Shown here: in pieces, positions 56,398 through 56,445 of the stretch
How the letters are laid out: each line of letters starts with the position of its first letter
How positions within the stretch are numbered: the first letter of the stretch is position 1
Assembly: GCF_988243305.1 (NCBI RefSeq)
Contig: NZ_OZ547136.1
DNA length: 64,000 bases
Direction: 5' to 3' (one strand)
The notes under the pieces: model-generated
Databases searched by the model: none
The model's input: the letters and a program-made list of their open reading frames with translations, nothing else
Told to the model about the DNA's origin: nothing
Made by a program: the position numbers and the translations under genes

Positions 56398-56445
56398 CAA
56401 CCAACGCCCCTTTCCGTAAGGCGAGGGGCGAATTAAGGAGAGGCG

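Follow-up and report, generated by a model that had tools for sequence, protein, structure and literature searches.

Discoordinate expression of the aceBAK operon

The aceBAK operon is a textbook case of genes in one operon being expressed discoordinately. AceK, a bifunctional kinase/phosphatase, is described as giving a steady-state output that is robust to enzyme amounts, so that changes in the AceK level might be of little consequence for the phenotype. A REP stem-loop in the malE-malF intercistronic region was reportedly shown by Newbury and colleagues in 1987 to give rise to discoordinate operon expression. Polymorphism of REPs in presence/absence and copy number is known from E. coli intergenic regions, reportedly through the work of Bachellier and colleagues.

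In K-12 MG1655 (NC_000913.3), the last base of aceA is 4218413 and the first base of aceK is 4218596. The spacer between them (4218414-4218595) is 182 bp long and contains three REPs, two of the Y-type and one of the Z-type; the initial annotation had given a REP-containing spacer of this length for K-12, and the K-12 form is indeed not of ~48 bp. The ratio of the aceBAK products is 0.3:1:0.003 according to Chung et al. 1993, as cited in PMC5435950. Premature termination within aceK has been seen by transcriptomics in BL21 (PMC5435950). An sRNA of ~85 nt, AceK-int (b4830), is located at 4218879-4218963 of K-12 and has an RNase E site at its 5' end (PMC8175672). The 3' end inside aceK is conserved, and transcripts of this segment of aceK in Klebsiella pneumoniae and Salmonella enterica could be the aceA 3' UTR (PMC10687069).

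Organization of the aceA-aceK locus

The window (the whole 64-kb stretch of DNA analyzed here) contains the metA-aceBAK-arpA-iclR-metH region of E. coli. NCBIfam equivalog models identified malate synthase A at 53444-55063, isocitrate lyase in the open reading frame at 55078-56397 (800.8 bits) and isocitrate dehydrogenase kinase/phosphatase in the open reading frame at 56446-58182 (944.1 bits). The earliest in-frame ATG of aceA is at 55078, whereas RefSeq places the start at 55093, giving a product of 434 aa (55093..56397, + strand). The gene aceK encodes 578 aa (56446..58182, + strand). E. coli 18KM2445 matches the 901 nt over the aceA-aceK junction (56000-56900) at 100%, and the same genes are present in the PGAP annotation.

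The gene arpA (728 aa; PGAP name espL4) is located on the opposite strand at 58151-60337, where it shares 32 nt with the 3' end of aceK. Between the 5S rRNA gene and yjaB (window ~51433-52107) there are ~115 bp and yjaA is absent, whereas K-12 has yjaA there. In Clermont typing terms, the window strain is arpA-plus and yjaA-minus.

The aceA stop codon (TAA, 56395-56397) and the aceK ATG (56446) are separated by the 48 bp that the initial annotation had given. This REP-free allele of the aceA-aceK spacer (56398..56445, + strand) was delimited by the sequence and the open reading frame list and consists, in order, of CAACCAA, CGCCCCTTTCCGTAAGGCGAGGGGCG, AAT, TAAGGAG and AGGCG. The single hairpin and the aceK ribosome-binding site (RBS) that had been claimed are both present. 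Folding places a GC-rich stem-loop of 8 + 2 pairs, with a GUAA loop and two 1-nt bulges, at 56405..56430 on the + strand, starting 7 nt past the aceA stop. The eight pairs of the outer stem run from C56405-G56430 to T56412-G56423, and the inner stem pairs C56414/C56415 with G56421/G56420. The centroid energy of the hairpin is -19 kcal/mol. The folding z-score of the 48-bp spacer by itself is modest (-2.4), and 2% of mononucleotide shuffles fold equally well. The hairpin has the structure of an intercistronic stabilizing stem-loop, being a stable hairpin directly 3' of the more highly expressed aceA.

The aceK Shine-Dalgarno (SD) sequence, UAAGGAG (56434..56440, + strand), is canonical and lies 5 nt before the ATG. 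Pairing with the 16S 3' end is predicted at -9.2 kcal/mol for this SD, compared with -6.1 kcal/mol for the K-12-type GAGG, and the SD is predicted to be unpaired with a value of 0.60 in the 48-bp allele and 0.25 in the K-12 type.

The GC-rich hairpin is not combined with the U-rich tract of an intrinsic terminator on the + strand, where the tail reads AATTAAGGAG and the terminator scan raised no flag. On the minus strand, the scan flagged 56405-56423, where the hairpin is followed by the weak tail TTGGTTGTTA, as terminator-like; this could in principle halt antisense transcription from the aceK/arpA side, but it may well be a chance match. An Rfam scan of 55900-57100 (E ≤ 1) returned nothing relevant, only a chance snoRNA match.

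The counterpart of AceK-int, ending at the premature terminator inside aceK, was found at 56729..56813 on the + strand; together with six further bases, it is identical to K-12 at 91/91 nt. The terminator consists of a hairpin at 56784-56805 followed by CTTTTTATCT and lies ~340 nt into aceK. The K-12 REPs had been implicated, according to the initial annotation, in the downshift from aceA to aceK, a view that is not shared by PMC5435950, which credits premature termination inside aceK and not the REPs.

Comparison with the K-12 spacer

Y- and Z-type REP patterns (≤3 mismatches) and 10-16-nt REP cores were found neither in the spacer nor anywhere in the 64-kb window, so the REP-free state claimed for the strain stands; the same patterns do detect the REPs of the K-12 spacer. 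The spacer lacks the REP/BIME consensus core (a GCCGGATG.../GCCTGATG... palindrome with adjacent GTAGG) and the many copies expected of REP/BIME elements, as a 72-nt spacer query matches one place per genome in 717 genomes. A decayed REP was ruled out because REP cores are absent. The possibility of a generally REP-poor strain was uninformative, since the homologous 65 kb of K-12 have REPs only in the aceA-aceK spacer and at yijD/trmA.

The initial annotation had treated the interval as a shared spacer lacking the REP insert, a description that does not hold, as the 48-bp and K-12 forms are not convincingly alignable and their SDs differ. The two forms have only a few terminal bases in common, namely CAAC close to the start and AATT directly behind the hairpin or the last REP, and the SD of all REP-type alleles is GAGG, whereas that of the 48-bp allele is UAAGGAG. 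Derivation of the 48-bp form from the K-12 spacer by loss of the REPs was ruled out by a one-REP allele of 84 bp, the frame of which (GCAACTGATAAAGTTGCTGATT...AATTCTCTGCTCCTGATGAGGGCGCTAA) is unlike the 48-bp sequence. As judged by alignment, the 48-bp form is an alternative that is not homologous to the K-12 spacer; its hairpin is another one, and its SD is both different and stronger.

The K-12 BIME and the window hairpin occupy the same operon position, where each provides a stable palindromic structure between a strongly expressed upstream cistron and a downstream cistron of very low expression, and both allele types sit upstream of the same aceK-internal terminator. The K-12 BIME, however, folds at -84.5 kcal/mol (182 nt), whereas the window hairpin at -19 kcal/mol is far weaker, is present in a single copy in the genome and has no REP cores. 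The first REP of the K-12-type alleles begins 26-27 nt past the aceA stop, at 26 nt in K-12 itself, compared with 7 nt for the window hairpin. The REP stem-loops of the malE-malF type likewise lie at the 3' end of an abundant upstream cistron and are proposed barriers to 3'-to-5' exonucleases; the window hairpin is not a REP, and such a role for it is putative.

Allele classes in E. coli

The 48-bp allele was searched for in 5,426 complete E. coli genomes with a 72-nt query composed of the spacer and 12-nt flanks on each side. It was found once per genome in 717 genomes (13%), and the query sequence was identical in 694 of these carriers. The REP-free state is thus not confined to the window strain. 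Named carriers include UTI89 and an APEC O1:K1:H7 strain, both of which are extraintestinal pathogenic. The allele has been publicly available ever since the UTI89 genome was determined, and a literature search found no description of aceA-aceK spacer polymorphism.

Spacers were aligned from eight E. coli genomes, and class frequencies were determined from an evenly spaced sample of genomes with 39 usable rows. The 280-bp class was the commonest in this sample (20), followed by the 48-bp (6), 182-bp (4), 124-bp (4), 183-bp (3) and 215-bp (2) classes; the 182-bp form of K-12 is a minority (4/39). All REP-type alleles have a common frame, GCAAC...GTTGCTGA(C/T)T, a REP array and AATTCTCTGCTCC(T/C)GA(T/C)GAGGGC..., and they constitute a copy-number series with one REP in 84 bp, two in 124 bp, three in 182/183 bp, four in 215 bp and five in 280 bp. 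The 84-bp allele (L102 3806-3889, GCA_012467775.1) combines K-12-type flanks with exactly the aceA 3' haplotype of the window. The largest array seen at the site, 11 alternating REPs in a 542-bp spacer, was found in E. albertii NBRC 107761 (L009 2459-3000).

The carriers of the 48-bp allele are diverse. UTI89, A37 and GmF052 are arpA-minus (aceK of 1725 nt, iclR adjacent), whereas the window strain, CNREC_004-43, P15-25, ETEC4068, SW4848, A287, NY1601, LCP30S3_I5 and 7/2 are arpA-plus. Between carriers, flank divergence reaches 4.2% in the 3' part of aceA and 2.9% in the 5' part of aceK. Segregation was examined in 15 carriers that were picked regardless of spacer variation and represent nine distinct flank haplotypes. 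None of the 48 spacer sites segregated, whereas 18% of third-codon positions did so in the terminal 594 nt of aceA and 11% in the initial 597 nt of aceK. The probability of 0/48 segregating sites is 6.6e-5 at the aceA rate and 3.6e-3 at the aceK rate. In the variant spacer of NY1601, one C-G pair is changed to U-G and the pair is kept, and in that of LCP30S3_I5 the inner stem and a bulge are altered while the outer stem still pairs. The 48-bp cassette appears constrained, although the invariance could be partly due to gene conversion instead of selection.

A recent sweep or import of the 48-bp allele was rejected, because pi near the spacer is not reduced (0.04-0.056 in the last 200 nt of aceA) and carriers span arpA-plus and arpA-minus backgrounds. 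The aceA 3' haplotype of the window is shared with the 84-bp REP allele, and the aceK 5' haplotype of UTI89 is shared with the 215-bp allele. Because the spacer classes switch on constant flanks, both are probably old and are freely exchanged against the surrounding sequence by recombination. The 48-bp spacer is a real, common and conserved natural variant of E. coli, and represents an ordinary regulatory polymorphism and not a new kind of element.

Stem-loops at the aceA-aceK junction of Enterobacterales

A scan of species-representative genomes yielded 80 Enterobacterales aceK loci, none of them from E. fergusonii, E. marmotae or E. ruysiae. A helix of at least 6 pairs was present in all 77 spacers that were folded. 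The distance from the aceA stop to the start of the helix has a median of 4 nt and is at most 15 nt in 82% of the 77 spacers. The median folding z-score of these spacers is -3.6, and the stem sequences of different families are unrelated. By crude motif matching, ~22 of the 77 spacers contain REPs (Salmonella, Citrobacter, Kluyvera and others), ~24 contain a CCCTCTCCC/GGGAGAGGG motif and ~31 contain neither and were classed as having a unique hairpin.

Spacers of 48-50 bp with the layout of the window occur in Lelliottia, Kosakonia, an Enterobacter, Pectobacterium and Buttiauxella. In Lelliottia, Kosakonia and Enterobacter (48-49 bp) and in Buttiauxella sp. B2 (50 bp), the stop codon is followed by a few nucleotides, a C-rich/G-rich hairpin, the SD and the ATG, as in the window. 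Most of the hairpins of these short-spacer relatives, however, are members of a CCCTCTCCC/GGGAGAGGG/GGGTGAGGG family of palindromes with further copies in their genomes, whereas the E. coli hairpin is unique in its genome. In Enterobacter, Klebsiella and relatives, this repeat is built of a CCCTCTCCC ... GGGAGAGGG stem with GGGTGAGGG behind it; the window does not contain this exact motif but reads CGCCCCTTTCC...GGCGAGGGGCG and then AAGGAGAGG. The best local alignments of the window sequence to spacers with such repeats score 28-31, compared with a shuffled maximum of 24.6 +/- 2.9 (p ~0.03 overall). The closest look-alikes of the window hairpin are found in the spacers of Buttiauxella sp. B2, Enterobacter and Pluralibacter. 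The window sequence AAGGCGAGGGGCGAATTA aligns with AAGGCGAGGG-CGAAATA of Buttiauxella sp. B2, with a score that 0.3% of shuffled queries exceed when compared with the short spacers and 3% when compared with all spacers. Homology of the window hairpin to these look-alikes is therefore marginally supported by the alignments (p ~0.003 for short spacers and ~0.03 overall).

The CCCTCTCCC/GGGAGAGGG/GGGTGAGGG palindrome was also observed both in the aceA-aceK spacer and downstream of aceK (L022, L031, L028 and L040, ~4720-4830). As the element recurs at both sites, it has the appearance of a REP-like repeat family in Enterobacter, Pluralibacter and their relatives. The GGGTGAGGGG arm of the CCCTCTCCC-type element doubles as the aceK SD.

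In Shimwellia pseudoproteus (L052) and Serratia (L074, L076 and L083), the hairpin between aceA and aceK is followed by a T-run and constitutes a canonical intrinsic terminator. The Shimwellia terminator is GGCCCCACCCGG-TTTA-CCGGGTGGGGC followed by TTTTTGTTGT, and that of Serratia is GGAGCCTGC...GCAGGCTC followed by TATTTTCT.

A contig labelled Edwardsiella ictaluri ATCC 33202 (L017) carries a Citrobacter-like aceBAK with an AceK that is 90% identical to that of E. coli. This would not be expected of Edwardsiella and may be due to contamination or gene transfer. In this locus (2940-3010), the aceA stop codon is replaced, and aceA runs through a hairpin-less stretch of 30 nt and overlaps the aceK ATG.

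Possible role of the hairpin

The reading that is slightly favored regards the interval as one of two old allele classes, composed of a unique non-REP stem-loop and a canonical aceK SD, in which the hairpin would take the role of the K-12 REPs. The layout of the interval, how often the allele occurs, how well its spacer is conserved and that a stem-loop is nearly universal at the site in Enterobacterales are the observations behind it. Formation of the hairpin in the aceBAK mRNA, and its performance of the job proposed for the K-12 REPs, would be expected from the comparison with that system. By analogy with REP and other intercistronic hairpins, the hairpin is most likely an mRNA stabilizer. 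It would form in the aceBAK mRNA, most transcripts of which would stop at the aceK-internal terminator or be cleaved by RNase E where AceK-int begins. Blocked by the hairpin, 3'-to-5' exonucleases would leave the aceB-aceA part of the message stable. AceK would be made from read-through transcripts only, at a rate set by the aceK RBS. More aceK translation per transcript than in K-12-type alleles would be expected, because the SD is stronger and more exposed and the aceK start lies 48 nt instead of 182-280 nt from the terminating aceA ribosome. The overall downshift of aceK should persist, because the internal terminator is unchanged from K-12. An effect of the spacer allele on AceA:AceK stoichiometry is plausible, given the stronger SD pairing and the predicted accessibility of the SD. 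An effect equal to that of the K-12 BIME is not assured, because the hairpin is far weaker.

A transcriptional role, in which the hairpin is a pause site or weak terminator that cuts read-through from aceA to aceK, has a precedent in the textbook intrinsic terminators of Shimwellia and Serratia at the equivalent position. It is considered unlikely for the window, where AAUUAAGG, and no U-tract, comes after the 3' arm and the terminator scan left the + strand unflagged; the U-tract is also missing in most short enterobacterial spacers, and a strong terminator is already present ~340 nt into aceK. The short distance between the hairpin and the aceA stop could point to a different role, at the level of translation. 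A hairpin less than 15 nt from the stop could hinder the terminating ribosome, so that AceA is dampened or trans-translation is provoked, and it might set aceK re-initiation 48 nt downstream. The stem begins 7 nt past the stop in the window and at a median of 4 nt (≤15 nt in 82%) in the 77 species, and REPs less than 16 nt from a stop codon are reported to lower translation of the upstream gene (Liang et al. 2015, as summarized in PMC12306157). The first REP of the K-12 type, at 26-27 nt, would place the two allele classes on different sides of this 16-nt limit. The published stop-codon effect concerns REPs, however, whereas the window hairpin is not a REP, and strong dampening is a poor fit with AceA being the most abundant product of the operon (0.3:1:0.003, cited in PMC5435950); such a role is accordingly held to be improbable.

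The third alternative is neutrality, with the hairpin being a relic and the REP/non-REP difference resulting only from palindromic elements that move at an intergenic site where they are tolerated. REP copies do vary freely, from 1, 2, 3, 4 and 5 in E. coli to 11 in E. albertii, and the occurrence of both spacer classes on identical flanking haplotypes suggests no strong epistasis with the flanks. Little weight is given to this explanation, as the 48-bp spacer is much less variable than the neighboring third-codon positions, and some stable stem-loop is found at the site in every species examined although the sequences are unrelated.

The polymorphism is an ordinary example of REP presence/absence variation and is not surprising. 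Its relevance lies in the fact that nearly all mechanistic work on aceBAK has been done on K-12, whereas approximately one-eighth of complete E. coli genomes, among them that of UTI89, a uropathogenic strain in wide use, have a completely different intercistronic cassette with a stronger aceK RBS. Because the cassettes differ and the three-REP form of K-12 is a minority, results on aceK expression in K-12 may not transfer to other lineages. The polymorphism represents a natural experiment on the function of intercistronic REPs and hairpins and on aceBAK polarity.

Origin of the two spacer classes

REPs are present at the site in E. albertii, Salmonella and Citrobacter. Many Enterobacteriaceae carry the K-12-like SD motif GATGAGGG or a variant of it. 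The K-12-type SD context (C/T)GATGAGGG is common to E. albertii, Citrobacter, Klebsiella indica and Pseudescherichia, and Salmonella has the close variant GATGGGG. As the SD context is common to these relatives, the REP-type frame may have been inherited vertically in the Escherichia-Salmonella-Citrobacter group. The distribution of REPs and SDs argues for a REP-type ancestor, whereas neighbor-joining (NJ) trees of the short flanks point the other way; in these trees, rooted on E. albertii, the 48-bp carriers are basal, and the flanks recombine freely.

It is unlikely, although conceivable, that E. coli keeps a long-lived and possibly selected polymorphism of two non-homologous regulatory cassettes at the aceA-aceK junction, one with a unique hairpin and a strong SD and the other with a REP array and a weak, partly sequestered SD. 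If this were true, the cassettes could set different AceK:AceA ratios, and lineages would be tuned in the speed of isocitrate dehydrogenase phosphorylation switching on acetate or fatty acids.

In UTI89 (L090) and in L008, L091 and L096, six synonymous changes are clustered in the last 46 nt of aceA (TCGTCGGTTACCGCACTGACTGG versus TCTTCAGTCACCGCGCTGACCGG). This cluster may be the remnant of an imported tract; the 80 species loci yielded no donor for it. The cluster in the aceA tail is compatible with introgression, by which the hairpin cassette may have reached E. coli.
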